In this document: positions 97 through 57,299 of the stretch, piece after piece | Layout of the letters: the number at the start of each line of letters is the position of its first letter | Position numbering within the stretch: position 1 is the stretch's first letter | Assembly (NCBI GenBank): GCA_041742965.1 | Contig: JBGTNQ010000003.1 | Span: forward strand, 12,483 to 76,482 | Reading direction: 5' to 3' | DNA: 64,000 nt | Origin: Minisyncoccia bacterium | GTDB lineage: Bacteria > Patescibacteriota > Minisyncoccia > Phycocordibacterales > Zambryskibacteraceae | Program-made: the position numbers and the translations under genes | The notes under the pieces: model-generated | Databases searched by the model: none | What the model was told of the DNA's origin: nothing | The model's input: the letters and a program-made list of their open reading frames with translations, nothing else

Positions 97-594
97 ATGA
101 AAAGAAAAAATTTTAGTGAGGGTTTCACATTAATTGAGCTTTTGGTCGTTATTGCAATTATCGGCATTCTCTCTAGTGTTGTGTTGGCAAGCTTGAATAC
201 CGCTAGAGCAAAGGGCGCTGATGCATCTATAAAAGCAAATCTAGCAGGCATTCGCCCTCAAGCAGAAATATTTTATGATACCAATAATCATTATGGTTCT
301 GACGTAATAGATGGGAGTTGTACCACGGCCGATAGCATTTTTCTTGACCCCAACATAACAGCGCAAATTGCTGGGGCGGTAACCTCTTCTTCTGGAGGGG
401 CTACACCAGCCACCTGCTATGCCGATGATGGAGATGACTCTGGCGTTGGTACAGCCGCATCTTCTTGGGCGGTTTCCGTACCTATGAAGACTGACCCAAA
501 TGATTCTTGGTGTGTAGACAGCACGGGCGTCTCTGCTATGGGTGTCGCTACAATTGATTCTACAACTGACTTGGCATACTGTGACCAGAGTTAA
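97..594 (+). CDS. Type IV pilin / pseudopilin with N-terminal prepilin methylation motif
   Basis: The N-terminus MKRKNFSEGFTLIELLVVIAIIGIL is a class III signal with a G|FTLIE cleavage/methylation site followed by a hydrophobic helix. Confidence 0.8.
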   Translation: MKRKNFSEGFTLIELLVVIAIIGILSSVVLASLNTARAKGADASIKANLAGIRPQAEIFYDTNNHYGSDVIDGSCTTADSIFLDPNITAQIAGAVTSSSGGATPATCYADDGDDSGVGTAASSWAVSVPMKTDPNDSWCVDSTGVSAMGVATIDSTTDLAYCDQS

Positions 595-669
595 TTTCTC
601 TTAAACAAAACGACTTAGAGAGTACTCTCTAAGTCGTTTTGTTATGCCCATTAGCGTATAATATTTTAT

Positions 670-1506
670 ATGGACGATTTAGTCTCTATTTTTGTTTTTA
701 TGTTCGGTGCGATTATCGGCAGTTTTCTTAATGTTGTTATCTTAAGATACAATACGGGAAAATCTTTAGCCGGTAGGTCTGGATGTTTTTCTTGCGGAAA
801 AAAGCTTCGTTGGTTTGAACTTATTCCTATATTCAGTTTTCTCCTTCTTCGTGGTAGGTGTGGCAACTGTCAATCCAAAATCTCTTGGCAGTATCCCATC
901 GTAGAGCTTTTGAGCGGTCTCCTGTTTGTTTTCTTTTGGCACTGGTTTAGTGTGGAGATCGGAGGGCTGGAGTCTCTATCTAAATTTGTGCTGTCCGTCA
1001 CCCTCTGGTCATCTCTTTTGATTATATTTTTCTATGATTTTAGGCATAAAATCATTCCAGATCTTTTTTCCTTCCTTTTTTCCTTTTGTGCACTGGCTCT
1101 TCTGACAATTAGTGTGTATTTCTATGGGTGGGGCATATTACCTAGCCATCTATTGGGAGCAATTTTGCTTTCTGGATTCTTTTTCGCCCTATGGTTTTTT
1201 TCAAATGGTCGATGGATGGGGTTTGGTGATGTAAAACTCGCTCTAGGTATTGGTCTCTATTTGGGTCTTTCTCAGGGTCTTTCTGCTTTAGCTTTTGCCT
1301 TTTGGATTGGTGCTGGTTTTGCAATTTTAAGGATAGTCGGCTCGAAATTGATTGTTCGTATGGGCATAAAGCGATTGAGTTCGGTTGGCGGAGGGCTTAC
1401 AATGAAGAGTGAGGTTCCGTTTGCTCCTTTTCTGATTATCGGCACATTCATCGCCCTCGTACTTCAAAGTGATGTGTTTCAAATAACTCTTTTTTTCAAT
1501 GTTTAA
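670..1506 (+). CDS. pilD: Prepilin peptidase (A24 family, PilD-like)
   Basis: N-terminal zinc-ribbon tetracysteine motif (CFSCGKKL...RCGNCQ), a polytopic membrane region and a GFGDVKL catalytic-Asp motif. Confidence 0.8.
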   Translation: MDDLVSIFVFMFGAIIGSFLNVVILRYNTGKSLAGRSGCFSCGKKLRWFELIPIFSFLLLRGRCGNCQSKISWQYPIVELLSGLLFVFFWHWFSVEIGGLESLSKFVLSVTLWSSLLIIFFYDFRHKIIPDLFSFLFSFCALALLTISVYFYGWGILPSHLLGAILLSGFFFALWFFSNGRWMGFGDVKLALGIGLYLGLSQGLSALAFAFWIGAGFAILRIVGSKLIVRMGIKRLSSVGGGLTMKSEVPFAPFLIIGTFIALVLQSDVFQITLFFNV

Positions 1507-2146
1507 CTTGTTTTTTCAAAAGAAATCTTCTGGTCCAAAATCTCTAACGGGTTTTACCCTCATAGAACTTATGATTTCTGTGAGTATTATTGGGCTTATT
1601 ACCGCCATTGTAGTTTTTAACCAAGGAGATTTAAGTGACCAAATATCTCTGAATAATGTAGTCAATGAGATAGATCTTCAGGTTCGTGAAGCGCAGGTTT
1701 ATGGTATTAGTGTTAGAGAGAGAACACCCTCTTCCGGTGATTTTGATATATCTTATGGGGTAGATTTTAATATCTCAGGAATCAATAACCCGACCAATAC
1801 TGCTTTCTATACTTTCGCTGACAGGGGGGTGAAAAACGGATACTTTGATACATTTGGTACATGTTCTACTGCTGGAGAATGTATATTTAGACACCCTGTA
1901 TCTAGGGGCAACATTATCAGTCAGCTTTGTGTTATTACATCAACAGGGAGCGAAACTTGTGGTTTAGGAAGAGTTGCCATTACTTTTGTTAGACCGAGTC
2001 CATCTGCAAAGATAGTCTTTTTTAATAGCTCTGGGAGTCTAGTGACATATTCTGGCCACAGAGGTGTTCGTATCACCCTAACTTCTCCAAAAGGTAAGAC
2101 AAAGAGTATTGTTGTTTATACGACAGGCCAAGTATCAATTAATTAG
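1499..2146 (+). CDS. Pilin-like (pseudopilin) protein
   Basis: SLTGFTLIELMISVSIIGLITAIVV prepilin N-terminus. Confidence 0.7.
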   Translation: MFNLFFQKKSSGPKSLTGFTLIELMISVSIIGLITAIVVFNQGDLSDQISLNNVVNEIDLQVREAQVYGISVRERTPSSGDFDISYGVDFNISGINNPTNTAFYTFADRGVKNGYFDTFGTCSTAGECIFRHPVSRGNIISQLCVITSTGSETCGLGRVAITFVRPSPSAKIVFFNSSGSLVTYSGHRGVRITLTSPKGKTKSIVVYTTGQVSIN

Positions 2147-2151
2147 ATGAT

Positions 2152-2778
2152 ATGAAATTTTATTACTTTTTTAATCTCATAAATAGACGAACCAAAAGAG
2201 GGGACAAACTCGGACAATCAAAAGGTTTTTCTCTTGTGGAGCTTTTGGTGGCGATAGCTATATTTGTGGTGATTTTAACATTTAGTATGGGCTCACTTTT
2301 GAGTGTTTTGGATGCTGGTAGAAAAGCGAGGTCTCTAAAATCAGTGATGACAAATTTGAACTTTACTCTTGAAATTATGTCTAGAGAGATAAAGTTCGGT
2401 AAAAATTATCGTTGTGGTGTAGCTACCAGCTTTCCTCCGGCACCACTTAACTGTACTGGTCAATCGTCCCCGGGGACTGCAATTAGCTTCGTCTCCAGTG
2501 AAGGGCAAAATATAATTTATAAAATTAATTCAGCTGGTAATGGTATAGAGAAATCTATAAACGGTGGGACCTCGTACTTAGCTGTTACCGCTCCTGAGGT
2601 GACTATTCAGGATTTAAGGTTTTATGTTTTTAATTCATATCCTCAGTCTGGGTCATCTCCAGATGACGCTCAACCAAGGGTCGTCATACTTATTAGGGGG
2701 TATGCCGGAGAGAAACCTTCTTTGCAGTCCAATTTCACCTTGCAAACTACGGTTTCTCAGAGAAGTCTTGATATATAA
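2152..2778 (+). CDS. Pilin-like (pseudopilin) protein
   Basis: KGFSLVELLVAIAIFVVILTF prepilin N-terminus. Confidence 0.7.
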   Translation: MKFYYFFNLINRRTKRGDKLGQSKGFSLVELLVAIAIFVVILTFSMGSLLSVLDAGRKARSLKSVMTNLNFTLEIMSREIKFGKNYRCGVATSFPPAPLNCTGQSSPGTAISFVSSEGQNIIYKINSAGNGIEKSINGGTSYLAVTAPEVTIQDLRFYVFNSYPQSGSSPDDAQPRVVILIRGYAGEKPSLQSNFTLQTTVSQRSLDI

Positions 2779-2782
2779 AAAT

Positions 2783-3334
2783 ATGAAATTCTTTTTTACA
2801 AAAACAAAAAATAAAATCAGTTCTTCTCGAGGATTCACCCTTTTGGAGGTTCTTATTGCTATAACTATTTTTATCTTTGCTCTTGTGGCTACCATGACCG
2901 CCGCTAGGAGTGGTCTGGCAAGTGCATACGAGTCTAGAGATCAGGTCATTGCTTTTTATCTGGCCCAAGAAGCAGTGGAGTTTATAAGAAATAAGAGAGA
3001 TACAAACAGTATTTTGAATACAGTTACTCCAACCAACTGGCTTAGTGGCGTCTCTAATCTTTCTAGTGATCCATGTTACCCCGGTAAAGTGTGTCTCATT
3101 GATGTTGTGGCGAACCAGATTACTGCCTGCGCCTCGCCAACCACCTGTCCAAACCTAAGACAAGATGTAAATACAAAAATGTACGGCTACGATTCTTCTT
3201 GGTCTTTAAATCAGTTTAAGAGAGAGGTTAGGGTGCAAAATATTAATGCTGACGAGGTGTCTATGACCGTTCTTATTACTTGGCCAAAGGGAAGTTTTGA
3301 AGTCAAAGAGATAATTTTAAATTGGCAAACTTAA
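2783..3334 (+). CDS. Pilin-like (pseudopilin) protein
   Basis: An internal ATG at 2783 gives MKFFFTKTKNKISSSRGFTLLEVLIAITIFIF; the longer ORF start at 2624 overlaps the preceding gene and is unlikely. Confidence 0.65.
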   Translation: MKFFFTKTKNKISSSRGFTLLEVLIAITIFIFALVATMTAARSGLASAYESRDQVIAFYLAQEAVEFIRNKRDTNSILNTVTPTNWLSGVSNLSSDPCYPGKVCLIDVVANQITACASPTTCPNLRQDVNTKMYGYDSSWSLNQFKREVRVQNINADEVSMTVLITWPKGSFEVKEIILNWQT

Positions 3335-3840
3335 TGAAAAACAAAAGATTTAAAATTAAAGACAGTTCACGGGGTATTGCTTTATACATTGCTATTACTA
3401 TCACTGGAGCATTGGTCTTGGTAAGTTTTGCCGTTGTAAATTTAGCCATTAGACAGATAAACATATCCTCAGCGGGGAGAGACTCACAGACCGCTTTTTA
3501 TGCGGCTGATAGCGGTGCTGAATGCGCCCTATTTTGGGATGTGAAGAACCCTTCAGGGCAGACAGCTTTTTCAACCACTACACCACAGACAACACTTTCT
3601 TGTAATGCTGACGCATCAAATCCCCTAAATGCCACTATTTCTATAAACAGAACATCTAATGGACCATATGCTACTTCAACTTTTAATATCACCTTTCTTC
3701 CCAGAACTTATTGCGCCACGGTAACTGTTGCAAAGAACTACTCTAGTGGTGTTCGGACAACCATAGAATCAAAGGGGTATAATACCTGTGCGTCAGGCGC
3801 CCTAAGGCGCGTAGAGAGGGCCATAAGAGTAGATTACTAA
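3334..3840 (+). CDS. PilX-like minor pilin
   Basis: MKNKRFKIKDSSRGIALYIAITITGALVLV resembles the PilX-type N-terminus; the start sits in a TAATG overlap with the upstream gene. Confidence 0.5.
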   Translation: MKNKRFKIKDSSRGIALYIAITITGALVLVSFAVVNLAIRQINISSAGRDSQTAFYAADSGAECALFWDVKNPSGQTAFSTTTPQTTLSCNADASNPLNATISINRTSNGPYATSTFNITFLPRTYCATVTVAKNYSSGVRTTIESKGYNTCASGALRRVERAIRVDY

Positions 3841-8305: not shown

Positions 8306-8371
8306 GTTGCACCGAGGCTCTATTTGGGTATAATGTGCCACACAGGCTGTGTTCGGCCAATCAGATGGCGG

Positions 8372-8640
8372 GTTGCCGTACGCACCTGATCATTACAAAA
8401 GTAGAGTATGGTCAATATAGCGGGTTGGAGGAGTAGTACCTCGCAAGGGGACAAAGACTCATAACCTGCACAGGTTAAGTTAATTAAGTGTATATTTAGA
8501 CATAGCGGGTTGCCGTACGTACCTGATCATTACAAAAGTAGAGTATGGTCAATATAGCGGGTTGGAGGAGTAGTACCTCGACAGGCTCATAACCTGTAGG
8601 CATCAGTGCAATTCTGATACCCGCAACAAGTATGAAAATA
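8372..8640. repeat. Tandem direct repeat (2 x ~135 bp) in the tRNA-Met leader region
   Basis: The unit gcgggttgccgtacgNacctgatcattacaaaagtagagtatggtcaatatagcgggttggaggagtagtacctcg...ctcataacctg occurs twice in tandem and is followed by a perfect 16-bp hairpin (8630-8672). Confidence 0.6.
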
Positions 8641-8866: not shown

Positions 8867-8941
8867 GCGGGCGTAGCTCAATTTGGTTAGAGCACTCCCC
8901 TGTCACGGGAGAGGTTGCCGGTTCAAGTCCGGTCGCCCGCG
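8867..8941 (+). tRNA. tRNA-Asp (anticodon GUC)
   Basis: Acceptor GCGGGCG/CGCCCGC, anticodon loop CUGUCAC, T-arm GCCGG-UUCAAGU-CCGGU. Confidence 0.9.
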
Positions 8942-9135
8942 CATAAAACAAACTGTCCCGGACGCGAAAGCGTTCGGGCAGTATTGTTTTACAGTGACGC
9001 CGGACTTGAAAGACGGAGGCCGCGAAGCCGTCCTGAGCTTTGCGAAGGGCGTGGCCGAGTCCGGGCAGGAGCCACTTATGACCCCGCTATGGCGGGGGAA
9101 TTAGTGAGCTGACGCCAAGTCCGGTCGCCCGCGCA
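8942..9135 (+). other. ~190-nt GC-rich structured element abutting the tRNA-Asp 3' end, ending in a 19-bp duplicate of that 3' end
   Basis: GNRA-capped hairpins (e.g. CCCGGACGC-GAAA-GCGUUCGGG and CCCCGC-UAUG-GCGGGG). The direct repeat aagtccggtcgcccgcgca occurs at 8925-8943 and 9117-9135. A near-identical copy lies at 10939-11129. Confidence 0.6.
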
Positions 9136-9214
9136 TCGAGAAAAACAGGGCTAAAAACATAGCTCTGTTTTTTATACTGACGGGATTTTGGAACCGGTGA
9201 TATACTTTTGGTGT

Positions 9215-10515: not shown

Positions 10516-10908
10516 ATGGACTCTACCAATGAATTTTCTTTTATATTAAAACCCTCAGAGCATGGGGTTGGAGTTTTTGCCACGCAGGATATTAAACAAG
10601 GAACACACCTGAGATTATTTGGGGATAATGAAGTGGTTAATTTGAAAGCATTAGAAAGAGAGAAAGAATCTGTTCCCGAGTTTTATCAAGAACATTGTTT
10701 AAATAGGGGAGACAAACTTATTTGTCCTCAAGATTTTGGACACATGCACATTGGTTGGTATTTAAATCACTCTAATAATTACAACGCTATTCCTGATGAA
10801 GTATATGAATGGTATGCATCAAGAGATATAAAATCTGGAGAGGAGATTCTTGTTGACTACAATACACTTGATGAACCAGACGAGTCTAAAGCTGATTACT
10901 ACAAATAA
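10516..10908 (+). CDS. SET-domain protein (putative protein-lysine methyltransferase) (cassette 3)
   Basis: GVGVFATQDIKQGTHL, NHSNNYN (NHSxxPN-like) and GEEILVDY motifs. Confidence 0.7.
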   Translation: MDSTNEFSFILKPSEHGVGVFATQDIKQGTHLRLFGDNEVVNLKALEREKESVPEFYQEHCLNRGDKLICPQDFGHMHIGWYLNHSNNYNAIPDEVYEWYASRDIKSGEEILVDYNTLDEPDESKADYYK

Positions 10909-10938
10909 TAGTTCTAACCTCCTCCACCAAGTTGCGCA

Positions 10939-11129
10939 TAAAACAAACTGTCCCGGACGCGAAAGCGTTCGGGCAGTATTGTTTTACAGTGACGCCGGAC
11001 TTGAAAGACGGAGGCCGCGAAGCCGTCCTGAGCTTTGCGAAGGGCGAGGCCGAGTCCGGGCAGGAGCCACTTATGACCCCGCTATGGCGGGGGAATTAGT
11101 GAGCTGACGCCAAGTCCGGTCGCCCGCGC
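10939..11129 (+). other. Second copy of the ~190-nt structured element, internal to the cassette array
   Basis: One mismatch relative to 8944-9135. It is preceded by the degenerate tRNA-Asp 3'-end-like motif CCACCAAGTTGCGCA and ends in GCCAAGTCCGGTCGCCCGCGC. Confidence 0.6.
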
Positions 11130-11200: not shown

Positions 11201-11728
11201 ATGAAATATATGAAGTTTATTAGAATTTTTCTCCTAGTTTTAATTGTTATTGGATTGGGACTGATTGCTACTCAAAAAATGTGGGTACCGAAGCTTGTAA
11301 CTCAAATATTGAACCGAGGGGACATGGTAGTTAACAAAGAGATTATTCCAGATGAGGCATCAGCCTTCGGAGATATATCTGGAGATAATAAGATTGTTGT
11401 TTCTGGAGTGTATAGTTACAATCAATTTATTGGCACTCTTCCATCACTAGATTTTTACGTTGATGAAGTCACCGCACATTTGATACCCCGAGGATTTGAT
11501 GATGATCGAATTCCGTGGTTTGGGATTTTAAATCAGGAGAAGGCTATGGCCTTATTGGGGATTAGTTCTAAAGAATTAGGAGGGAATATCTGTGAGATTA
11601 AAGGGAATGCAGAAATAGAGATATCAAAATACTTAATCTATCGAGGGGAGTCCGAGGGAAAAGATGGAGCGACTCTAACAAAATTGTTGAAGGTTAGCCC
11701 TCCCACCTATATCAATTGTACAAATTAG
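11201..11728 (+). CDS. Hypothetical membrane-anchored/secreted protein (cassette 4)
   Basis: N-terminal TM/signal MKYMKFIRIFLLVLIVIGLGLIA; no recognisable domain. Confidence 0.5.
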   Translation: MKYMKFIRIFLLVLIVIGLGLIATQKMWVPKLVTQILNRGDMVVNKEIIPDEASAFGDISGDNKIVVSGVYSYNQFIGTLPSLDFYVDEVTAHLIPRGFDDDRIPWFGILNQEKAMALLGISSKELGGNICEIKGNAEIEISKYLIYRGESEGKDGATLTKLLKVSPPTYINCTN

Positions 11729-11836
11729 GTTGGTTCTAACATCCTCCACCAAGTTGCGCATCGAGAAAAATAGAGCTAATAATATGGCTCTATTTTTTAT
11801 ACTGATGGGATTTCAGAACCGTGATAATATTTTGGT

Positions 11837-12733: not shown

Positions 12734-12845
12734 TTGTATAGCAGTTCTAACTTCCTCCACTAAGTTGCGCATAGAAAAAAGTAGGGCTAATAATATGGCT
12801 CTATTTTTTATACTGATGGGATTTTAGAACTGATATACTTTTATT

Positions 12846-13571
12846 ATGAAAATCATATCTTTGAATACATGGGGAGGACGTATTCATGAACCACTCTTAA
12901 ATTTTTTCGAGAAGCACAAAGACGCTGATATTTTTTGTCTACAAGAGATTTACCACGAAGCTAGAGGAAAGGAGAATGATGACGAGTATCAAAATGACGC
13001 CCACAATCTTTTTATAGATATTCGAAACATATTAAATAATCATAAAGGATATTTTAGACCTGCGGTCGGTGATTACTACGGTTTAGCGATATTTGTTAAA
13101 AATGACATACACGTAGAGCAAGAAGGCGACATATCTATATACTCTGTCGAAGAATATAAAGGTGGTGGTAATCACTCAAGAAATCTCCAATACATTAAAC
13201 TTATAGACAAGGAGAGTAAACTCCTGGTAGCCAACGTGCATGGGATTTGGAATGGTAAAGGGAAAACAGATACCCCAGAGAGGCTAGAGCAATCTAAAAG
13301 GATAAAGGAGTTTCTTAATGAAATGAACAGCAAAACAGTATTGTGTGGAGATTTCAATCTTTTACCAGATACTAAAAGTGTGAAAATTTTAGAGGAGGAT
13401 ATGGAAAATTTGGTTAAAGAATATGGAGTAAGTACCACCAGGAGTAGTTATTACACTAAACCAGAGAAATTTGCCGATTATATTTTTGTTACATCAGGTA
13501 TTAAGGTCAAGGATTTTAAGGTCTTACAAGATGAGGTGTCTGACCACCTACCTTTGTTAGTCGAGTTCTAA
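12846..13571 (+). CDS. Endonuclease/exonuclease/phosphatase (EEP) family protein (cassette 6)
   Basis: ISLNTWGG...FCLQEI...NVHG...SDHLPLLVEF, the hallmark motifs of the EEP fold. Confidence 0.7.
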   Translation: MKIISLNTWGGRIHEPLLNFFEKHKDADIFCLQEIYHEARGKENDDEYQNDAHNLFIDIRNILNNHKGYFRPAVGDYYGLAIFVKNDIHVEQEGDISIYSVEEYKGGGNHSRNLQYIKLIDKESKLLVANVHGIWNGKGKTDTPERLEQSKRIKEFLNEMNSKTVLCGDFNLLPDTKSVKILEEDMENLVKEYGVSTTRSSYYTKPEKFADYIFVTSGIKVKDFKVLQDEVSDHLPLLVEF

Positions 13572-14077: not shown

Positions 14078-14530
14078 ATGGCTAACCCAAAAAAACCGCG
14101 CCCCAAGTGTCCGACATGTGGCAAAGAGCCTGCTCGGTCATTCTACAAATATTGTAGTAATAGATGTCAGCAGGAATATCAGCGTGCGCGTTATCTTAGG
14201 GAATGGAAGGCCGGGAAAAGAAGTGGCCTGCAAACTATAGGAATTGTCACGGTGACAATAAAACGTTACCTTAGAGAAAAATTCGGGGATAAATGTTGTA
14301 TTTGTGGTTGGTCGAAAGTTAACCCAAAAACCGGGAAGGTCCCATTGGTCGCTGACCACATTGATGGGAATTGGCGCAATAATGCAGAAGAAAACCTTCG
14401 TTTGATATGTCCAAATTGCGATGCATTATTGCCAACGTTTTCCGCGCTAAATAAAGGTAATGGCAGGGAAAATAGGGCGCCAAGAAAAAGAACTCAAGAA
14501 GCGACGGAGTTTTTAAAAAAGCCAAAGTAG
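14078..14530 (+). CDS. HNH homing-endonuclease-like protein
   Basis: CPTCG...CSNRC zinc ribbon followed by CCICGWS...VPLVADHIDGNWRNNAEENLRLICPNCD, an HNH motif with a flanking CxxC pair. Confidence 0.8.
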   Translation: MANPKKPRPKCPTCGKEPARSFYKYCSNRCQQEYQRARYLREWKAGKRSGLQTIGIVTVTIKRYLREKFGDKCCICGWSKVNPKTGKVPLVADHIDGNWRNNAEENLRLICPNCDALLPTFSALNKGNGRENRAPRKRTQEATEFLKKPK

Positions 14531-14591
14531 TTCAGTGGTAGAACACTGCTTTCGTAAAGCAGGAACGCGAGTCCGATTCTCGCCTTTGGCT
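14521..14591 (+). tRNA. tRNA-Thr (anticodon CGU)
   Basis: Acceptor GCCAAAG/CUUUGGC, D-arm GUUC-AGUGGUA-GAAC, anticodon loop UUCGUAA. Its 5' end overlaps the last three codons of the HNH ORF. Confidence 0.85.
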
Positions 14592-14874
14592 CTAGTTTTG
14601 TTTGTTTTAATGATAAAAATCTGTATTCTGTAGGAACGGGGGAGCAAGCCTTCTCCGTCAGAGAATTGGCCCGACTCAATCGGCAATAAGCACAGAGGGC
14701 TCTGTTCGTGGTCCATATTGAACGGTGGTCTGTGCACTGCTCGGCGGGATTAGACACCTCGCTAAAATCAATTGGATTGGCAGTACGTCCGCAAGGTCGA
14801 AACTGTCTCAAGACACGGACAGGGGGCGCCGATACACCACTCGGCGTCCCTTTTCATTTGCTATAATCACACTT

Positions 14875-15750
14875 GTGACCAAAGAAGAGATACAAAAAAA
14901 GATTGAGGAACTTGAAGCGACTATGAGCTCGCCAGATTTTTGGTCTGACAAAGACAAGGCCCAGAGAACTATAAAAGAAATTCAAGATCTAAAAGACGAC
15001 CTACTGGGTGTGGGAAAATATGACAAGGAAGACGCCATCATGACGATATTTTCTGGTGCAGGAGGAGATGATGCAGAAGATTTCTCTTCCATACTTCTAG
15101 ATATGTATTTGAAATATATTCAGAGTAAGGGGTGGAAGACAGCCCTTATACACGAAAACAAAAATGACCACGGCGGTTTTCGCAATGTAACTATAGAAAT
15201 TTCTGGCAAAAATGTTTATGGAACATTGAAAAATGAATCCGGAGTGCACCGGCTCGTGCGCGTTTCACCATTTAATGCAAAGCAGTTGAGACATACTTCT
15301 TTTTCAATGGTTGAGGTGATACCAAGATTTGAAAAAACAGGAGAACTAGAAATTCCAGAGTCTGATATCCGTGTGGAACTTTCGAAGTCAGGTGGCCCAG
15401 GTGGACAAAATGTAAACAAGCGAGAGACAGCGGTGAGGGTCATACATATACCGACGAACCTTTCTGTCCATGTGACGAGCGAGCGGTCGCAGGGTCAGAA
15501 CAAAGAAAAGGCCATCGCCATTCTTCACGGCAAACTTTATAAACATCTTGAGGAAGAGAGAATCGCAAAAGAAAAGGGTATGTATATTTCCAAAAGTACT
15601 CAAATAGAATGGGGTAATCAAATACGGTCCTATGTCTTTCATCCATACAAAATGGTCAAAGACCATAGAACTAATGTAGAAACTTCAGATGTTGAATCCG
15701 TTCTTGAAGGGGAGATAGATGAGTTTATAGAAGCGGAGAAAGAGCTGTAG
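14875..15750 (+). CDS. prfB: Peptide chain release factor 2 (no programmed frameshift apparent)
   Basis: SPF tripeptide (VRVSPFNAKQ), GGQ motif (SGGPGGQNVNK) and an RF2-like N-domain. The start is set at a GTG 8 nt after a TATAAT box; the upstream in-frame extension is GC-rich and Arg-rich and unlike RF2. Confidence 0.75.
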   Translation: MTKEEIQKKIEELEATMSSPDFWSDKDKAQRTIKEIQDLKDDLLGVGKYDKEDAIMTIFSGAGGDDAEDFSSILLDMYLKYIQSKGWKTALIHENKNDHGGFRNVTIEISGKNVYGTLKNESGVHRLVRVSPFNAKQLRHTSFSMVEVIPRFEKTGELEIPESDIRVELSKSGGPGGQNVNKRETAVRVIHIPTNLSVHVTSERSQGQNKEKAIAILHGKLYKHLEEERIAKEKGMYISKSTQIEWGNQIRSYVFHPYKMVKDHRTNVETSDVESVLEGEIDEFIEAEKEL

Positions 15751-15884
15751 GGGGGAATAGGGAAAAAAGAAAGGAGAGTAATGATGAATAATGATTAAGG
15801 CAGGCACAAAAACCCCTCGTTGTAATCAATTCTCACCTTTCTTTGTTGGTACTTGCCTATGTGATACAATACAGGGACGAATGA

Positions 15885-43199: not shown

Positions 43200-44105
43200 A
43201 TGAATCTCTACTCTCATCAAGACGCAAATATAAGGAAAACTTGGTTTTTTATGGCCATGTTTTTCGTAGTAGTTATTGCTTTGGGCTGGTTTTTCTCTTA
43301 TGTTTACAACGACGTTTCAATTCTCTATATAGCTGTTATCTTCTCAATCTTCATGAATGTTTTTGGTTATTGGTTTTCGGACAAGATTGTTTTGAAAATG
43401 CACAAAGCCAAACAAGTGACTAGGGAGGAATATTTTGACCTATGGAATATGACGGAAAACCTCTCTATTAGTGCGGGTCTACCGATGCCAAAGCTCTATG
43501 TCATAGATGAACCTTCTCCAAATGCTTTTGCTACTGGTAGGAACAAAGAGCACGCAGTTGTTGCAGTGACTACAGGTCTCCTTCAAATTTTGGATAAAAG
43601 TGAACTTGAGGGTGTTGTCGCTCACGAGCTAGCCCATATTGGTAATAGAGATATGCTTCTTTCTACTATGGTTGTGGTGCTGGTGGGCTTCGTGACTTTG
43701 ATTTCTGATTTCTTTTTAAGATCTATGTATTTTGGTGGTGGTAGAAGTGAGAAGGGTGGGCAGGTTCAGGGTATTTTGTTTTTAGTAGGAATTGTTTTGG
43801 CAATTCTCTCACCATTTATCGCCGTTATTATTCAGCTTGCTATTTCTCGAAAGAGAGAGTTTTTGGCAGATGCTTCTGGGGCACTTCTCACTAGGTATCC
43901 AGAGGGTCTCGCTGGCGCCTTGAGAAAAATAAGTTCAGCCGGTGTGCCAATGCGAACTGCCAATGATGCTACCGCACATTTGTTCATATCCAACCCTTTC
44001 GGGGGAAATAAAACTAAGTTTTTGCATAAATTGTTTATGACTCATCCACCTGTAGAGGAGAGAATAAAAGCCCTTTTAGGCAGTGGTCACAGTAGTGTAA
44101 ACTGA
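43200..44105 (+). CDS. htpX: HtpX-like M48 zinc metalloprotease
   Basis: VAHELAHIGNRD HExxH motif and four TM helices; paired with lemA. Confidence 0.8.
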   Translation: MNLYSHQDANIRKTWFFMAMFFVVVIALGWFFSYVYNDVSILYIAVIFSIFMNVFGYWFSDKIVLKMHKAKQVTREEYFDLWNMTENLSISAGLPMPKLYVIDEPSPNAFATGRNKEHAVVAVTTGLLQILDKSELEGVVAHELAHIGNRDMLLSTMVVVLVGFVTLISDFFLRSMYFGGGRSEKGGQVQGILFLVGIVLAILSPFIAVIIQLAISRKREFLADASGALLTRYPEGLAGALRKISSAGVPMRTANDATAHLFISNPFGGNKTKFLHKLFMTHPPVEERIKALLGSGHSSVN

Positions 44106-44145
44106 AATGAGCCTTGCCCCGTAGCGAGCTTTGCTCTACTACTGG

Positions 44146-44195
44146 GGTGACTCATCCACCAGTTGAAGAGCGCGTAAACGCGCTCTTAGGAATAA
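44146..44195 (+). pseudogene. Remnant duplicate of the htpX 3' end
   Basis: gtgactcatccaccagttgaagagcgcgtaaacgcgctcttagg encodes VTHPPVEERVNALLG, against MTHPPVEERIKALLG at the gene end. The nucleotide sequence is diverged. Confidence 0.4.
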
Positions 44196-44212
44196 CGAAT
44201 AAGGAATAAGGA

Positions 44213-44815
44213 ATGGAGAAACCAGAATTAACAAAAGAAGAGCTTCAGAAAAAAGTCGCTGAGTTGGAAGCGGAAATTTCTATTTTAGAAAAAGATTTGA
44301 TTCACGATCATCTAACCAATCTTAAGACAAGGGGATTTTTTGAAGAAGAAGCAAAGATGTATCTTGAGATGGTGGCGCATTCAGATGATACTCGGCGAAA
44401 ACAGTGGTTTGGTTTTCGCAACGCAAGTATTATTCTTTTTGATACGGACTATTTTAAAAAAGTAAACGACACCTTTGGGCATTTGGTGGGAGACGAAGTT
44501 TTGAAGAGTGTTTCAAAAACAATTGAAGATTCACTTCGTGAAGGCGACACCGCTTCTCGTTGGGGTGGGGAAGAAATCGCTGTGCTTTTACTTGGCGCAA
44601 ATGAAACTGACGCTGTTGCCAAAGCAGATGAAATACGGGAAGAAATTTCAAAATTAAAATTTTCTGCTTTAGATTTGTCAGTTACTATTTCAGCGGGTGT
44701 AGCTTCTTCAGAAAAAGGTGTACATCTTTCAGAGCTTGTTGATAGGGCAGACAAAGCTTTATATAAAGCCAAAGAAACTGGAAGAAACAAAGTGGTAGGG
44801 TATTCGGAAATATAA
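44213..44815 (+). CDS. GGDEF-domain diguanylate cyclase
   Basis: RWGGEEI (GGEEF) active site preceded by a coiled coil. Confidence 0.8.
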   Translation: MEKPELTKEELQKKVAELEAEISILEKDLIHDHLTNLKTRGFFEEEAKMYLEMVAHSDDTRRKQWFGFRNASIILFDTDYFKKVNDTFGHLVGDEVLKSVSKTIEDSLREGDTASRWGGEEIAVLLLGANETDAVAKADEIREEISKLKFSALDLSVTISAGVASSEKGVHLSELVDRADKALYKAKETGRNKVVGYSEI

Positions 44816-45015
44816 AAAAGTATAAGAGAAAACGGCAAGCGCATCGCGCTTGCCGTTCGGTACTGCGTTTCTTCTCACCTACGGTCTAGGGATCTTTGCT
44901 CACTAAACACTGAGGTGAAAAACACTGGGGTTTTCGTACTCCACACACACTATACAGATGTCCAAAGAATTTTTGGGGAATACTAGGGGAATACTAGTTG
45001 GATCGATTTATTTCT

Positions 45016-45420
45016 TTACTCTTTATTGTTAGCTTCATCATATTTCTTTTCAGCTAATCGCTCTTGTGCCGAGGCAAAAGAGTCTTCATATTTTTCTCGT
45101 CTAGAAGCAATGGTTCTGATTTCTTCATCTGAAGCATCAGGATCAAAGCCCTCAACTCGATCTTCCTGGTGATCAATATTAGAAGGATCTTTTTTATCTC
45201 CTCCCCGAATGTCCATATTCCCTAAAGAAGCAAGTTTTGCTTTAGTTCCAAGTCCGGTTCTACCTTTCTTTATGGGGGTCTCGCCAGATTCCACTTTGCG
45301 GTAACCAGCAGCAGCGTCACGTTCAAATTTTCCCGCATATGCCACCACCTCGGCCTTAGCTACATCGTCAATTTTTTCAGATTCATCCGCAGGTATCTGC
45401 GGGACTCCTTCTATTCCCAT
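45016..45420 (-). CDS. Hypothetical acidic low-complexity protein within the insertion
   Basis: ORF only. Confidence 0.35.
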   Translation of the reverse strand: MGIEGVPQIPADESEKIDDVAKAEVVAYAGKFERDAAAGYRKVESGETPIKKGRTGLGTKAKLASLGNMDIRGGDKKDPSNIDHQEDRVEGFDPDASDEEIRTIASRREKYEDSFASAQERLAEKKYDEANNKE

Positions 45421-45507
45421 GTTTTTATTGTTTAATTATAATAGCTCTAATTTTATACCCCGTGTGAGAAAAGCACAACTATAGGCAAATAGGTTATAAT
45501 ATCTTTA

Positions 45508-48267
45508 ATGTCAGAATATTTTAAATTTACTACCCCAGAACAGGAGCTTGAATACCTACGCTCCAAGGTTCTTGAAGTCGAAAAGAAGCTGGAGAGCAAT
45601 GAGATACAACCTGTGCGAGAATCTGTAATCAGAGAGTCTGTTGCAGAATTTAAGAAAGAAGCCGGCATTGGTGCTCCGGTCGCAAATGCTTTGGAGGTCG
45701 AAAAAGATGCAGAAGTTATTCTGGAAAAACATCAGGAAGCCCAGCTCCAGGAAATGGTAGTTTTAGCAGAATCAAAGGGTATTTCCCATGCGCTTGAGGT
45801 TGTTGCGAAGATTAAAAACTGGCAAGCAGAAGACGACTTTCATGCTTTCCTCGTCGAACAAGTGGCTCAAGGCTTGCCGCCCCCTGGAGTAAAAGAAAAA
45901 GGACCGATATATCAAGCCCTTCATATGAAGCTATTTGAGATTCTACTTCCGAAAGAGGTCGGTACAGAAAAATCTTTAGGGGATCTCATAGGAAGTATGG
46001 AGCAGTTTTACGCTGGGCTACTTTCTATAGCAGGCGACAAAAATGACAAGGTTAGCCATTTAGCTTTTGAGATTGCTAACCCTAACGGTGAAGAAGACAC
46101 TCGAGTTTTTGTTTCTGTACCCGAATTAAGGGTTGATCTTTTTAGCAAACAACTTTTAGCAATTTTTCCTAAAGCACGACTTATCGACAGGAAGAGCGAT
46201 TACAATATTTTCAATGAATTAGGTACAACTCTGGGTGTTTCCGCGACATTGTCTAGTTCCCCCGCCTATCCTTTAAAGACTTCTGAAGATTTTTCTTCAG
46301 ATCCGCTCAACGTAATTTTAAATGGGTTTTCCAAAATACCTAAGGTTGGCGCGGGAGCCACTTTGCAAATTATTTTTAAGCCGATTGGAGATACTTATGC
46401 AAAAAAATTCGAGTCTGCTTTAAAGAAAATTGAAAAAGGAGAGAACCCCAAAGAAGCCTTGCGAGACGATGGGGTCGCAATGGAATTGACACGCTCGATT
46501 GGAGAAGCTTTCTTTAGTAAAAAGAAAGAAAAGAAAGAAAAGGAAGATAAACCCATAGTTATAGATCAAGGGATTGTTGGAGCAATTAAAAAGAAGCTCC
46601 AAAGCCCAATAGTTGAGACTAATATCCGTTTTGCGACTTCAGCCCCTACCGAAGAAGAGGCTCGTCAGTTAATTCACAATTTCACTTCTACCTTCAATCA
46701 ATTCGAGAATCCCAGCAGGCAGAATATTACTTGGACTGAAGCGAAATCTTCTGGGTGGCTCGCACTTAAAGACAATGATTTCTACAAGTCATTTATTTTT
46801 CGACTGTTTAAAGATACCGAAAAGATACCGCTTAATCTTTCAGAACTTTCTACAATTCTTCATTTCCATACCGAAGCATTATCTTCCAGCTCGACTCTCA
46901 GTCGCACAAAATCAAAAAGCGCACCGCCACCTGTAGGTCTTCCAGAAGCCGGCACCCTCTTAGGCATCAATTCATTCCAGGGAGTTGAGAAAAGTATATA
47001 TATCGCTCCAGAGGACCGCCTAAGGCATTTCTACGCTATTGGTCAGACTGGTACAGGTAAGTCCACCTTGCTCAAAAACATGATTATTGAGGACATTAAA
47101 AATGGCGAAGGGGCTTGTTTCATTGATCCGCACGGTTCTGATGTGATGGAAATTCTTGCCAATGTACCCAAGGAAAGGTTGGAAGACGTGATCTACTTCG
47201 ATCCCGCTTCTACTGAGCGACCGATGGCCTTGAACATGCTCGAATACGATCCCCACTTTCCTGAACAGAAGACCTTTGTCGTTAATGAACTTTTCTCTAT
47301 TTTCCAGAAGCTCTATGGCGGTAGCCCAGAATCCATGGGGCCCATGTTCGAGCAGTACTTCCGTAACGCCACGATGTTGGTGATAGAAGACCCAGAGAGT
47401 GGTTCAACCCTACTTGACGTCTCTCGGGTAATGTCTAGCAAGGAGTACCGCGACTTGAAGCTTTCCAGATGCAGGAATCCGATAGTTGTCCAGTTCTGGA
47501 GAGAGATCGCTGGTAAGGCTGGAGGAGAGGCCGCACTCGTTAATATGGTTCCCTACATCACATCAAAATTTGACGTTTTCTTGGCCAATGACATTATGCG
47601 TCCGATCATCGCACAAGAGAAATCCTCATTTAATTTCCGAGAAATTATGGATGGAAAAAAGATTCTTCTGGTAAATCTTGCCAAGGGCCGTCTGGGAGAT
47701 ATCAATGCTAATCTTATCGGTCTCATTTTGGTTGGTAAAATCCTAATGGCCGCACTTTCTCGTGTAGATGCGCTTGGTCAAAATCTTCCTTCCTTCTATT
47801 TATACATAGATGAATTCCAGAATATTACTACCAACTCAATCGCCACGATTCTTTCCGAAGCTCGAAAGTATAAGCTTTCGCTTACAATTGCCCATCAATT
47901 TATTGCGCAACTTCAGGAAGATATTAAAAATGCTGTTTTCGGCAACGTGGGTACAATTTGTTCTTTCCGAGTTGGCCAAGATGATGCTGAATATCTACAG
48001 AAACAGTTTGCTCCAACTTTTGCAGCACAAGATATTGCCAGCATCGATAATTTTAATGCTTATATAAAAATGCTTATTCATGGCAAGCCAGTTGAGCCCT
48101 TTGATATCCGCCTGATGCCAAGACAAACCGGAGATCAGTCAAATATCGAAATTGCTAAGCAGGTATCCTCGGTAAAATACGGACGTGATAGAGCTGAGGT
48201 AGAAGCTGCGATTATGGCTAAGTACCAACCCTTGCAGGAAGTAGTTTCCAGCTCTCAGATTCTTTAA
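45508..48267 (+). CDS. FtsK/HerA-superfamily ATPase, type IV secretion-like (VirD4/TraG coupling-protein-like or VirB4-like)
   Basis: Walker A AIGQTGTGKSTLL and Walker B LYIDEFQN followed by ARKYKLSLTIAHQFIAQL...FGNVGTICSFRV; a ~470-aa N-terminal non-ATPase domain. Confidence 0.6.
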   Translation: MSEYFKFTTPEQELEYLRSKVLEVEKKLESNEIQPVRESVIRESVAEFKKEAGIGAPVANALEVEKDAEVILEKHQEAQLQEMVVLAESKGISHALEVVAKIKNWQAEDDFHAFLVEQVAQGLPPPGVKEKGPIYQALHMKLFEILLPKEVGTEKSLGDLIGSMEQFYAGLLSIAGDKNDKVSHLAFEIANPNGEEDTRVFVSVPELRVDLFSKQLLAIFPKARLIDRKSDYNIFNELGTTLGVSATLSSSPAYPLKTSEDFSSDPLNVILNGFSKIPKVGAGATLQIIFKPIGDTYAKKFESALKKIEKGENPKEALRDDGVAMELTRSIGEAFFSKKKEKKEKEDKPIVIDQGIVGAIKKKLQSPIVETNIRFATSAPTEEEARQLIHNFTSTFNQFENPSRQNITWTEAKSSGWLALKDNDFYKSFIFRLFKDTEKIPLNLSELSTILHFHTEALSSSSTLSRTKSKSAPPPVGLPEAGTLLGINSFQGVEKSIYIAPEDRLRHFYAIGQTGTGKSTLLKNMIIEDIKNGEGACFIDPHGSDVMEILANVPKERLEDVIYFDPASTERPMALNMLEYDPHFPEQKTFVVNELFSIFQKLYGGSPESMGPMFEQYFRNATMLVIEDPESGSTLLDVSRVMSSKEYRDLKLSRCRNPIVVQFWREIAGKAGGEAALVNMVPYITSKFDVFLANDIMRPIIAQEKSSFNFREIMDGKKILLVNLAKGRLGDINANLIGLILVGKILMAALSRVDALGQNLPSFYLYIDEFQNITTNSIATILSEARKYKLSLTIAHQFIAQLQEDIKNAVFGNVGTICSFRVGQDDAEYLQKQFAPTFAAQDIASIDNFNAYIKMLIHGKPVEPFDIRLMPRQTGDQSNIEIAKQVSSVKYGRDRAEVEAAIMAKYQPLQEVVSSSQIL

Positions 48268-48324
48268 TACCTCCCAGAGTTTGAATCCCAGACTCGTTCG
48301 ATCTATGTAAGCTCAAAAAAGCGT

Positions 48325-48376
48325 TATACAAAGCCAAAGAAACTGGAAGAAACAAAGTGGTTGGGTATTCGGAAAT
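48325..48376 (+). pseudogene. Duplicated 3'-terminal fragment of the GGDEF gene (right-end repeat)
   Basis: See the insertion at 44812-48324. Confidence 0.55.
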
Positions 48377-48445
48377 TTAGTCTCTAAAGAGAATAGGCGG
48401 CGACATCTCTGTCGCCGCCTATGTGTTACCCTTGACCTCGCCAGC

Positions 48446-48928
48446 CTAGCGACAGGTGGTCGCTGAGGATGAGGTTACGTAGAACCCAGTCTCATCCCAC
48501 CTCAAATTCAAGGTGAGGATGAGAACCTCCATGGTTCCACCACCACCCTTAGGGATAATGCGGAAGCTGTACGTGTACTGTGCCTCCCCAGATGTCGAGG
48601 TGGTTTCTTGCCACCCACCCCCAATGTTCTGGAAAACATACTCTCGATCTTGGGTGTCAAAGAGACGCCCTCCAGCGACGTTGAAACGCTCCCTATAGCT
48701 TGTGGATCCATCGGGGTTTACCACGAACTTGCGGGTGAAGTGGATGCGATAGGTTCCCTCGACAAACTGGGTTGGTCCACAGAGAGAGAACCAGTTGATA
48801 CTCCAATCTGCCCATTCGCTTGTTGCTGACTGGGCACTCATTTCGGCGCGGACAGGCTCTGTGGGCAGGGCGTTACCGCAAGCGGCGATGAACATCATCG
48901 CACAGAGTGCCAACATCTTCCGGAACAT
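48446..48928 (-). CDS. Putative lipoprotein (GC-rich)
   Basis: Lipobox FIAACG, ~55% GC and a terminator hairpin at 48395-48422. Confidence 0.5.
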   Translation of the reverse strand: MFRKMLALCAMMFIAACGNALPTEPVRAEMSAQSATSEWADWSINWFSLCGPTQFVEGTYRIHFTRKFVVNPDGSTSYRERFNVAGGRLFDTQDREYVFQNIGGGWQETTSTSGEAQYTYSFRIIPKGGGGTMEVLILTLNLRWDETGFYVTSSSATTCR

Positions 48929-49069
48929 AACTCCTCCTTGGTGAGTGGGGACCTCGTACTTCGGGAAAAAGAACTTCTACAACTGCCGACTACTTTATAA
49001 TATAAAAACTTTTTGTCAAGCTATCGTGACAATGTTTCCACCACGTTGTTTTTGTAATTAATTTGTTGG

Positions 49070-49738
49070 TTAATTAAAATCTGAGTATTTACGCCAATAT
49101 TTATAAAGTATTTTGTTCCCTTTTTTTATCCTCAGATTGATATTTTTTTCATTTAGATTATTAAAACTACCAAAGTAATAATTCCAAATTCGCTTCTTTG
49201 TTGGTTTAGACATCTGAAACTTTACATTGTGCCAATGAAATTTCTGTAAAAACATTAAGATTATAAGATTATTTTTGTTCCTGTATTGATACAAAACTTT
49301 TTGAATATTTTTTACCATAATCTTCTCTCTTAGATACATTTTTACCCACCATTCAAAATGGGTTCCTCTACGGTAGGGTTTATGATTCTGATAACCACTT
49401 TTTTCTAGGTCTATCTTTAATAGTTCTGACGGACCGTCAACTTTATATAATTTGATATCGTGCCCGTTTTTCCAAAGAGTGGCAATATTATCATAAACAT
49501 AAATATCAGATTTTACCCATGGAAATTTTTTTGCAACCTGAAGTAGATCTTTCTTTTGCTTCTTTAGCCTATTTAGAGGCTTTCTTGATGGAGGAAATTT
49601 GTTGTATATGGAATCAGGTGTTTGGCTATTGTTGGGCGCTTCAAAGAAAATAATGTCAGGTTTGTGTCGTGTTATGGCATTTGCCTGACGCATATCCACG
49701 CCTTTTCTTTCTATGCAACTAAATTGATATATTTTCAC
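49070..49738 (-). CDS. Hypothetical protein, paralog of 9215..9889, immediately downstream of tRNA-Ser
   Basis: See the paralog at 9215..9889; the orientation relative to the tRNA is the same in both cases. Confidence 0.6.
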   Translation of the reverse strand: MKIYQFSCIERKGVDMRQANAITRHKPDIIFFEAPNNSQTPDSIYNKFPPSRKPLNRLKKQKKDLLQVAKKFPWVKSDIYVYDNIATLWKNGHDIKLYKVDGPSELLKIDLEKSGYQNHKPYRRGTHFEWWVKMYLREKIMVKNIQKVLYQYRNKNNLIILMFLQKFHWHNVKFQMSKPTKKRIWNYYFGSFNNLNEKNINLRIKKGNKILYKYWRKYSDFN

Positions 49739-49849
49739 GTTTTTTATTCTTAAATTATTTTTTCTATAATCTCAATTTTGACGGAGCACTTCGCTAAAGG
49801 CTCAGCACCCTCGCAAAATCAAAGCCCTAATGTGTCGGGCTAGATTTTG

Positions 49850-49936
49850 CGGAGGGTAAGAGATTTGAACTCTTGAAGGACTTTCGCCCTTGCCACCTTT
49901 CCAAGGTGGTGCACTAGACCACTATGCGAACCCTCC
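49850..49936 (-). tRNA. tRNA-Ser (anticodon GGA)
   Basis: Minus-strand cloverleaf with a long variable arm: acceptor GGAGGGU/ACCCUCC, anticodon loop UUGGAAA, T-arm AAGAG-UUCAAAU-CUCUU. Confidence 0.85.
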
Positions 49937-56267: not shown

Positions 56268-57299
56268 ATGCAGAAAATCAGAGTCGCTATTAATGGAGCA
56301 GGTCGTATTGGTAGGGCCTTTATGAAAGTCGCCCACGACAGACCAGAGATTGATATTGTCGCAATAAATGACCTCGGCGACGCAGAAAATATTGCTTATT
56401 TAATCAAGTACGATTCTGTCTATGGCAAAGCCCCTTTTGAGGTTACGGTTAGTGATGATGGGAAGAAAATAATTTTAGGTCATGATGAGACAATTTTCCT
56501 TTCTGAAAAAGAGCCCGCCAATCTACCTTGGAAAGACCTGGATATTGATGTGGTGGTTGAATCTACGGGCTTTTTTACAAGTTTTGAAAAAGCAAAAGCT
56601 CATCTTGATGCTGGAGCAAAAAAAGTGGTGGTGACAGCACCAATGAAGGATGACCCTAGTCCAGAAGTTCCTGGGGCAACAATTCTTATGGGAGTAAACG
56701 ACGAAAAGCTTTCAACCTGTACTATAAGCTCAAACGCATCTTGCACTACAAACTCTGCTAGCCCTCTCATTGCAATTTTAGATGAAGCTCTCGGAATTGA
56801 AAAAGCTATTTTAAACACTGTACACGGATATACAGCTACGCAGTCTCTTGTAGATGGCCCAGCAAAAAAAGGTTTTAGAGAGGGAAGGGCCGCTGCGCAA
56901 AATATCGTTCCTTCTTCAACTGGAGCGGCAATTGCTGTGACAAAAGCATTCCCGAAGCTCGAAGGTCTTTTTGACGGAGTCTCAATGAGAGTTCCTGTCA
57001 TTGCTGGCTCAATAGTTGATGTGACTTTTATTTCAAAAAAAGAAACTACGAAAGAAGAGGTGAATGCAATTTTGAAAAAAGCTTCAAAGGAAGAGCGGTG
57101 GAAAGGAATTTTTACTGTGACCGAAGAAGATTTGGTATCAAGTGATATTTTAGGAAGTCCTTATGGCTCAATTGCTGATTTAGATTTAACTAGGGTCATT
57201 GGAGGAAATCTGGTCAAGGTTTGTGCTTGGTATGATAACGAAATGGGATATACACACACACTTGTTAATCATGTGATAAAGGCGGGGGGTTTAGTATAA
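56268..57299 (+). CDS. gap: Glyceraldehyde-3-phosphate dehydrogenase
   Basis: INGAGRIGR Rossmann motif and the ASCTTNS active site. Confidence 0.9.
   Translation: MQKIRVAINGAGRIGRAFMKVAHDRPEIDIVAINDLGDAENIAYLIKYDSVYGKAPFEVTVSDDGKKIILGHDETIFLSEKEPANLPWKDLDIDVVVESTGFFTSFEKAKAHLDAGAKKVVVTAPMKDDPSPEVPGATILMGVNDEKLSTCTISSNASCTTNSASPLIAILDEALGIEKAILNTVHGYTATQSLVDGPAKKGFREGRAAAQNIVPSSTGAAIAVTKAFPKLEGLFDGVSMRVPVIAGSIVDVTFISKKETTKEEVNAILKKASKEERWKGIFTVTEEDLVSSDILGSPYGSIADLDLTRVIGGNLVKVCAWYDNEMGYTHTLVNHVIKAGGLV

Follow-up and report, generated by a model that had tools for sequence, protein, structure and literature searches.

The question raised by this locus is how a gene for a 919-amino-acid (aa) VirD4/VirB4-like ATPase came to lie between two copies of the 3′ end of a GGDEF (diguanylate cyclase domain) gene. 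The locus is part of a window of 64,000 nucleotides (nt) from a Minisyncoccia bacterium (contig JBGTNQ010000003.1); all coordinates are those of the whole window, which is the part of the genome that we examined. The initial annotation had taken the duplicated gene end as the footprint of site-specific integration and the insert as a possible decayed integrative/conjugative element. We found that in this Parcubacteria lineage an inserted segment of ~3.44 kb separates the GGDEF gene from its convergent lipoprotein-like neighbor, that the GGDEF-end copies flanking this cargo come from two lineages, and that the fossil copy has hardly decayed since. As to how this came about, we give about an even chance to a recent relocation or acquisition of a chromosomal ATPase gene via recombination with DNA of a related lineage. 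The features of the locus, including its open reading frames (ORFs), are as follows.

44213-44815, plus strand: intact GGDEF gene of 200 aa (PF00990, E = 1e-38), the target whose 3′ end is duplicated.
44753-44815, plus strand: left repeat copy (B1), the final 20 codons and stop of the working GGDEF gene.
44816-44880, plus strand: post-stop segment with a hairpin terminator (44830-44858), homologous to GGDEF-downstream DNA of relatives up to near 44880.
44881-48317: cargo of ~3.44 kb (an ORFan, a promoter-like site, and the ATPase gene), without a counterpart at this site in relatives.
44975-44997, plus strand: tandem GGGGAATACTA(G), two copies, the only occurrence in the window.
45016-45420, minus strand: acidic 134-aa ORF, an ORFan.
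45414-45442, plus strand: promoter-like site (TTCCCA-17-TATAAT), a consensus match only, located 66 nt before the start codon of the ATPase gene.
45508-48267, plus strand: 919-aa ORF for a soluble P-loop ATPase, with a DUF8128 N-terminal half and a VirD4/TrwB/VirB4-like NTPase C-terminal half.
48318-48380, plus strand: right-hand copy of the repeat (B2), a GGDEF 3′ end that survives as an untranslated fossil.
48393-48422, minus strand: second terminator hairpin, serving the convergent pair formed by the ATPase gene and p160.
48446-48928, minus strand: p160, a 160-aa gene with a signal peptide and lipobox-like N terminus, the native convergent neighbor of the GGDEF gene.

A repeat search paired 44753-44814 with 48318-48379 (58 of 62 positions identical, start-to-start spacing 3565 nt). 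Including the stop codon, the repeat unit measures 63 nt, i.e., 20 codons and a stop, and both B1 and B2 encode KALYKAKETGRNKVVGYSEI followed by a stop. The duplication of the GGDEF gene end around an insert is thereby confirmed (62-63-nt repeat, 44753-44815 and 48318-48380), as is the claim that the repeat rebuilds the 3′ end of its target. An earlier description of 19 codons with two nucleotide changes at 48325-48376 is accurate for that range, but the full repeat has five differences. A core of 32 nt is identical in both copies (44765-44796 and 48330-48361); in a search for further copies, it was found only at these two sites in the window, where none is expected by chance.

The five differences between B1 and B2 (GCT/GCG, TAT/TAC, GTA/GTT, ATA/ATT, and TAA/TAG) all fall on third codon positions and are all synonymous. 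Synonymous changes make up 21.7% of the possible single substitutions in the repeat, which gives P = 4.8e-4 for such an all-synonymous pattern under random substitution. B2 itself is not translatable, as its frame is closed upstream by a TGA at 48282 and no start codon follows. Since the differences are exclusively synonymous third-position changes, B1 and B2 were each a working gene end until recently, in different lineages. The lack of any replacement-type change in B2 translates into a calculated neutral decay of less than ~6% since the event. Three other sources of such a repeat were considered and rejected. A second GGDEF pseudogene disagrees with the stop at 48282, the missing start codon, and the sharp edge of the similarity to the GGDEF gene, which begins abruptly at 48318, 50 nt past the ATPase stop codon. 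For the template and variable repeats of a diversity-generating retroelement, there is no reverse transcriptase among the insert ORFs, and the changes (T/G, T/C, A/T, A/T, and A/G) are not adenine specific. For a transposon target-site duplication, the five synonymous differences are unexpected, and neither a transposase nor terminal inverted repeats were found.

The DNA beyond the two stop codons carries the same signal. On the left, local alignment matches the post-stop DNA to that of three relatives (L002, L004, and L006) for ~60 to 64 nt past the stop (z = 11-17), while on the right, homology to relatives resumes ~31 nt past the B2 stop and runs into the convergent gene (z = 5-6). The left and right post-stop sequences are unlike each other (z = −0.5). 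The terminator reported after the GGDEF gene is a real hairpin (44830-44858), and it is joined by a second, different one at 48393-48422: both stems are perfectly paired, with different stem sequences, and the left hairpin scores as a terminator on the minus strand. Because both sides match the single site of the relatives while the post-stop regions are mutually unalike, the flanks fit two diverged versions of one locus, which would overlap by the GGDEF end and terminator and enclose the 3.44 kb of cargo. Such a structure is expected after a crossover between the resident locus and incoming DNA bearing its own copy of the stretch.

The same two features, the all-synonymous differences and the unlike post-stop sequences, led us to exclude a target-site duplication made in place. 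More broadly, it strikes us as very improbable that the repeat was copied when the insert came in, whether through fill-in of a staggered break or through template switching during replication, and that the copies diverged later. Such a duplication would account for direct repeats that immediately flank the insertion, the native-like G+C content of the cargo (0.38-0.49, resembling the surrounding DNA) is compatible with movement within the genome, and in a more distant genome (L090) the ATPase gene lies ~6 kb from the same LemA-HtpX-GGDEF block. However, random changes would be expected in an untranslated copy, rather than five of five synonymous third-position changes (P of ~5e-4), and the adjoining terminators, which should be part of the same duplication, cannot be aligned. 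This account, too, lacks a transposase and terminal inverted repeats.

That the segment was inserted follows from the comparison with relatives. In L002, L004, and L006/L007, the GGDEF gene is directly followed by a convergent gene of 168 to 174 aa, with no insert, so that the earlier suggestion of an insertion relative to relatives is borne out by empty sites, all within one clade. The GGDEF orthologues of L002, L004, and L006 show 79 to 83% identity and the same synteny, with the gene order MFS, RNase J, SBP, SecG, GroES/EL, LemA, HtpX, GGDEF, and the convergent gene, continuing with tRNA-Ser(GGA), MsrB, an RRM protein, DUF192, and ribonucleotide reductase. The counterparts of the fast-evolving p160 in these genomes share 37 to 39% identity with it. 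For both the GGDEF and the ATPase proteins, the nearest relatives belong to the Parcubacteria/Patescibacteria. Divergence varies from gene to gene on both sides of the junction, and a phylogenetic discontinuity at that point is not supported. A metagenome scan with the GGDEF protein returned hardly anything but distant GGDEF genes, with identities no higher than 64%, and added neither occupied nor empty sites, and an exact look-up of this protein gave no match.

At the nucleotide level, the window and its relatives are 70 to 85% identical in coding DNA and 25 to 55% identical in intergenic DNA. Set against this divergence, the decay of less than ~6% in B2 indicates that the insertion took place long after the split from the relatives. 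This bears on the converse scenario, in which the ATPase gene has always stood here and recombination between the repeats removed it from the relatives. A deletion between direct repeats would recreate the exact empty site, and since the relatives form one clade, a single loss would suffice. Nevertheless, we consider this scenario to be far-fetched, because B2 shows no neutral decay beyond that limit, whereas the split is near saturation at silent and intergenic sites, and because the ATPase gene is likewise not at this site in the more distant L090. Moreover, the genomic context of the ATPase gene in L091, which is common to distant lineages, indicates another ancestral position, and creating the repeat would still take an insertion event.

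Given that the source is a metagenome-assembled genome, the arrangement could also be an artefact, in which two co-occurring strains, or an empty-site chromosome and a 3.56-kb circle, were misjoined via the 32-mer. Two Logan contigs of run SRR28170462, built with k = 31, indeed break inside the 32-mer (L001 at 48359 and L175 at 48332), so that this graph cannot settle the connectivity, and a look-up of p160 returned only a short Logan contig broken in the repeat. On the other hand, L001 is 100% identical to the window over 45198-48359, including the junction between the ATPase gene and the B2 variant, so that the right junction was assembled independently. The 32-nt identity is shorter than the reads and than the final k of the usual assemblers, and a chimeric join at the repeat would yield one hybrid copy, not two copies with their own unique flanks. 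We therefore see hardly any room for a misassembly.

The recombination with related-lineage DNA that we favor would have proceeded as follows. Incoming DNA would have carried its own GGDEF 3′ end together with the terminator of that end and ~20 nt beyond. Recombination inside the shared stretch, plausibly within the 32-nt identical core, would then have joined this DNA to the resident locus. A circular molecule would have entered through a Campbell-type single crossover, transformed linear DNA through homology-anchored integration. The outcome would be an intact GGDEF gene, a terminator for each convergent pair, and the last 62 nt of the other allele left as a fossil beside the ATPase gene. 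The ATPase gene would be the cargo, not the driver of the movement, and would have been relocated or reacquired here; we base this on its being an ordinary, vertically inherited chromosomal gene of Parcubacteria. Campbell-type integration and homology-facilitated illegitimate recombination during transformation are known to leave the same picture, in that donor and recipient versions bracket the insertion and no element-encoded recombinase is needed, the 32-nt identical core being available for RecA-type exchange. They differ from the present case in that here the donor molecule is unobserved and competence is inferred only from pilin genes: in a cluster at positions 97-3840 of the window, four encoded proteins bear the N-terminal methylation motif of type IV pilins, alongside a PilX_N-like protein and a prepilin peptidase, and a gene for NAD-dependent DNA ligase comes next. 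Judging from these predicted products, the pilin-like proteins and prepilin peptidase would be compatible with DNA uptake.

Traces of older exchange occur next to the GGDEF gene. The 3′ end of the HtpX gene (44038-44080) is copied 110 nt downstream at 44148-44210, immediately ahead of the GGDEF gene. This copy, which encodes VTHPPVEERVNALLGITNKE and a stop, has 10 nucleotide differences from the working end, 8 of them silent. It is also present in L004 (86% over 73 nt) and absent from L002 and L006, and this HtpX-end fossil is older than the GGDEF-end fossil. Its conservation between the window and L004 (0.83) exceeds that of the surrounding coding DNA, suggesting that it may be functional, e.g., as a leader or translational-coupling element for the GGDEF gene. 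The region is also a fine-scale mosaic: the first 40 nt of the GGDEF gene (44214-44253) are 88% identical to L006 and 50% identical to L004, and the 60 nt upstream (44154-44213) are 83% identical to L004 and 45% identical to L006. Mosaicism and the HtpX-end fossil together show earlier interlineage recombination with imprecise joints at this locus.

Several points weigh against the proposed recombination. The synonymous divergence between B1 and B2 is based on just ~12 synonymous sites. Comparison with relatives does not tell the resident copy from the incoming one, as B1 shows 10 to 13 and B2 11 to 14 differences, which gives no polarity. The three empty-site relatives form one tight clade (their RNase J proteins are 96 to 97% identical to each other and 72% identical to that of the window) and amount to roughly one independent observation. 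The donor arrangement, an ATPase gene beside a GGDEF 3′ end, was found in no other genome, and the first joining of the cargo to a GGDEF end is unobserved. Homologous and site-specific crossovers would look the same at this level, and an integrase or a second copy of the ATPase gene may lie elsewhere, as the window makes visible only 64 kb of the genome.

The last points lead to the reading closest to the initial annotation, namely, that the insert is a remnant or satellite of a site-specific integrative element whose attP mimics the GGDEF 3′ end, whose tyrosine-type integrase was lost or acts in trans, and whose ATPase is a DNA transfer gene. Imperfect direct repeats that rebuild a gene 3′ end, combined with empty sites in relatives, are the classic footprint of attachment sites, so that this hallmark of integrative elements is present here, and further gene-end or tRNA-end fossils occur in the window. 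As in islets and islands at gene 3′ ends (bounded by attL and attR, and including integrative and mobilizable or conjugative elements [IMEs and ICEs]), the insert is present or absent depending on the lineage, its direct repeats restore the target 3′ end and carry allele-type substitutions, and the cargo has its own promoter-like site. It differs from these elements in that no integrase, excisionase, or relaxase was found in the ORFs covered, nor is an oriT apparent, the arrangement does not recur in other genomes, the cargo is one conserved chromosomal gene plus an ORFan, and the duplicated homology runs past the gene end into the terminator.

The analysis covered ∼60 of the 74 window ORFs of at least 110 aa (∼45 by Pfam scan and ∼14 only by synteny with relatives). 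No recombinase family was found in the two insert ORFs or among the ∼45 Pfam-scanned window ORFs, in line with the earlier remark that there is no integrase, and tblastn of the serine recombinase of L088 (see below) against the window gave no match. In the insert and the scanned window ORFs, likewise, no relaxase and no further type IV secretion system (T4SS) or mating-pair genes were found. Among ∼90 other ATPase loci, there was no flank homology to the window, no flanking gene-end repeat, and no GGDEF-end fragment, and IMG/VR held no match; there is no second instance of this cargo between such ends, nor of an insert of any kind at the GGDEF site. Gene-end repeats as a general rule for ATPase loci were rejected, since the repeats at L064, L082, L080, L075, L045, and L039 are intergenic and promoter- or terminator-like.

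The history of the ATPase gene points the same way. Relatives of the ATPase were confirmed in 132 stretches of species-representative genomes, the best 80 of which were used for the comparison of genomic context. In ∼30 of these 80 loci, the gene stands in the order SecY, Adk, (UMP-kinase-like), Map, [ATPase], Ndk, ..., beta-CASP, ..., L20, IF3; other ATPase clades have conserved contexts of their own, and context tracks sequence similarity. The S20/RuvA/Fpg/c29 context of L091 (80% identity) also occurs in lineages that are only 52% identical. The gene is apparently a single-copy chromosomal gene found across the Parcubacteria, and these conserved contexts indicate vertical inheritance with occasional relocation. 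The closest ATPase clade (76 to 81% identity) presents a different context at nearly every locus, as a mobile element might, and a large serine recombinase is located 3 to 4 kb from the ATPase gene in L088/L089 and in L091. However, L088 and L093 share the same broad ATPase location, one with and one without the recombinase, and to our knowledge, serine recombinases produce no 60-nt repeats. Distant homologues of the ATPase on plasmids and phages (phrog_5156) would suit a transfer gene, in contrast to the vertical inheritance of this family in housekeeping contexts. Overall, a site-specific element strikes us as possible though unlikely. A decayed integrative/conjugative element, as first proposed, is not supported: the ATPase gene is chromosomal throughout the lineage, no relaxase, recombinase, or mating-pair gene was found in the insert or among the window ORFs scanned, and the arrangement recurs at none of the ∼90 loci.

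The recombinase loci have oddities of their own. In L088 (GCA_964342515.1), the ORF of the large serine recombinase (14274-15800), 3.4 kb from the ATPase gene, enters a tRNA-like sequence; a 111-nt inverted copy of the recombinase end (12937-13047) lies 1.2 kb upstream, and an IS200-type Y1 transposase follows. The recombinase of L091, ∼4 kb from the ATPase gene, is related to that of L088.

What kind of ATPase was moved? Its Walker A motif (GQTGTGKS) occupies residues 512-519, and its N-terminal half matches DUF8128 (PF26449). Of the description as a VirD4/VirB4-like ATPase, profile comparison bears out the VirD4 side: the type IV coupling protein (T4CP) profiles PF02534 (T4SS-DNA_transf, 32.1 bits versus a cutoff of 20.1) and PF12696 (TraG-D_C, 25.2 bits versus a cutoff of 22) match, but the Pfam CagE_TrbE_VirB4 profile gives no match at an E value of ≤0.01. 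Curated NCBIfam coupling protein models (TraD, CD1115, MobC, and others) stay far below their cutoffs, the best reaching 49.7 bits versus 366. An N-terminal membrane anchor is absent, with the top 19-residue hydropathy window at 732-750 in the NTPase domain and none in the first 500 residues.

An AlphaFold model of the protein (pLDDT 77.5, pTM 0.50) was compared with known structures. With the full-length model, for which pTM is 0.50, Foldseek placed TrwK/VirB4 chains first (E = 5e-15, ∼900 columns), although the TM for this two-domain fold is only 0.28-0.33, and the C-terminal domain superposes on TrwB with a target-normalized TM of 0.60-0.66, as well as on Cag-beta, HerA, and the VirB4 C-terminal domain. 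The protein thus falls in the VirB4/VirD4 branch of the FtsK/HerA-type ATPases as a canonical member of neither family, being closest to T4CPs (VirD4/TraD) by sequence profile and similar to both VirB4 and TrwB by fold. With T4CPs and VirB4 it has in common a P-loop NTPase domain with an inserted helical domain; it differs from them by its DUF8128 N-terminal half, the missing N-terminal transmembrane anchor, and a housekeeping context across the Parcubacteria without neighboring T4SS or relaxase genes. The ATPase matches phrog_5156 (E = 3e-68), and distant homologues abound on plasmids of Firmicutes, Streptomyces, and archaea as well as in Bacillus phages. A phage origin was rejected, because IMG/VR holds no relatives and the phage and plasmid homologues in annotated collections are just 20 to 36% identical. 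A role as a defense system was set aside as well, with only weak HerA/mad8 matches.

A recent survey of Patescibacteria (2025) found 5,713 VirD4-like T4CP homologues in 2,918 genomes, just 148 of them near virB4, and few relaxases in the genomes surveyed (PMC12102498); T4CP homologues are ubiquitous on the chromosomes of this phylum and seldom close to virB4 or relaxases. In agreement with this survey, the chromosomal, lineage-wide occurrence of the present ATPase gene in housekeeping neighborhoods argues that it is no ICE marker. A bolder alternative is that in one Parcubacteria clade the gene is the core of a minimal self-relocating module without its own recombinase, which carries along a copy of the 3′ end and terminator of its target. 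We hold this to be highly improbable. If it were true, the module would change its chromosomal site or pass from one cell to another on contact, the ATPase would translocate double-stranded DNA as Streptomyces TraB does, and the differing contexts in almost every close relative would reflect real mobility.

Both cargo ORFs are present as described earlier, the one of 134 aa on the minus strand and the one of 919 aa for the ATPase. The 134-aa ORF has no homologue besides itself among 5.8 billion proteins and no Pfam, NCBIfam, PADLOC, or PHROG match; whether it is a real gene is uncertain, and a conserved role as a partner of the ATPase was rejected for this ORFan. The tandem motif had been placed at 44967-44990, and its true position is 44975-44997. 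The GGGGAATACTAG pair, whose units overlap by one base to give an 11-nt period, had been regarded as iterons; as a single local tandem pair that occurs nowhere else in the window, it forms no iteron family, and the GGGGAATACTA(G) pair is probably a trivial local duplication. Known RNA families were not found in 43900-49100. The lipobox-like motif of p160 was read by eye from MFRKMLALCAMMFIAAC.

Other irregularities are scattered over the window. A 222-aa ORF on the minus strand (49070-49738; G+C content of 0.27-0.33, no family match) lies between p160 and the 3′ end of tRNA-Ser(GGA) (49849-49936, minus strand). Absent from all syntenic relatives, it represents another insertion at this locus, independent of the first; no flanking repeat was found around it. 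Farther away, in the regions 8867-9136, 10905-11129, 11727-11831, and 12738-12842, there are repeats related to tRNA ends. The terminal ∼20 nt of tRNA-Asp are found again 190 nt downstream, and the 196-nt piece between the two occurrences (8939-9134) is repeated at 99% identity at 10934-11129. Behind each of three consecutive genes (a SET-domain gene, a 175-aa ORF, and MurB) comes a repeat of 45 to 100 nt that resembles a tRNA 3′ end with a hairpin after it. These tRNA-end repeats resemble stacked integration scars or a small mobile sequence targeting “...GCGCA.” In addition, an 84-nt direct repeat (8365-8448 and 8502-8585, 95% identical) overlaps with its second copy the 5′ half of tRNA-Met (8556-8627), and its first copy may be a broken tRNA-Met duplicate.

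Two further genes stand out. Positions 20052-22241 encode a 729-aa fusion of a nitroreductase and a YcaO cyclodehydratase; YcaO/nitroreductase-type enzymes are used for azoline/azole peptide modification and are unusual in a reduced Parcubacteria genome. The GAPDH gene (56268-57299) is 91 to 95% identical to that of the relatives (94% among the relatives), compared with 58 to 89% for neighboring genes, which could reflect extreme conservation or recent exchange.

The event at the GGDEF gene provides a clean, datable case of gene order change in uncultured Patescibacteria with their tiny genomes. A conserved chromosomal gene reached a new site, in our favored reading by recombination with related-lineage DNA, while the target gene stayed intact and an allele fossil marks the spot. 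For this phylum, the locus further shows that VirD4/VirB4-like ATPases are not to be read as markers of conjugative elements. Should gene-end fossils turn out to be frequent in such genomes, they could help to trace recombination between lineages.

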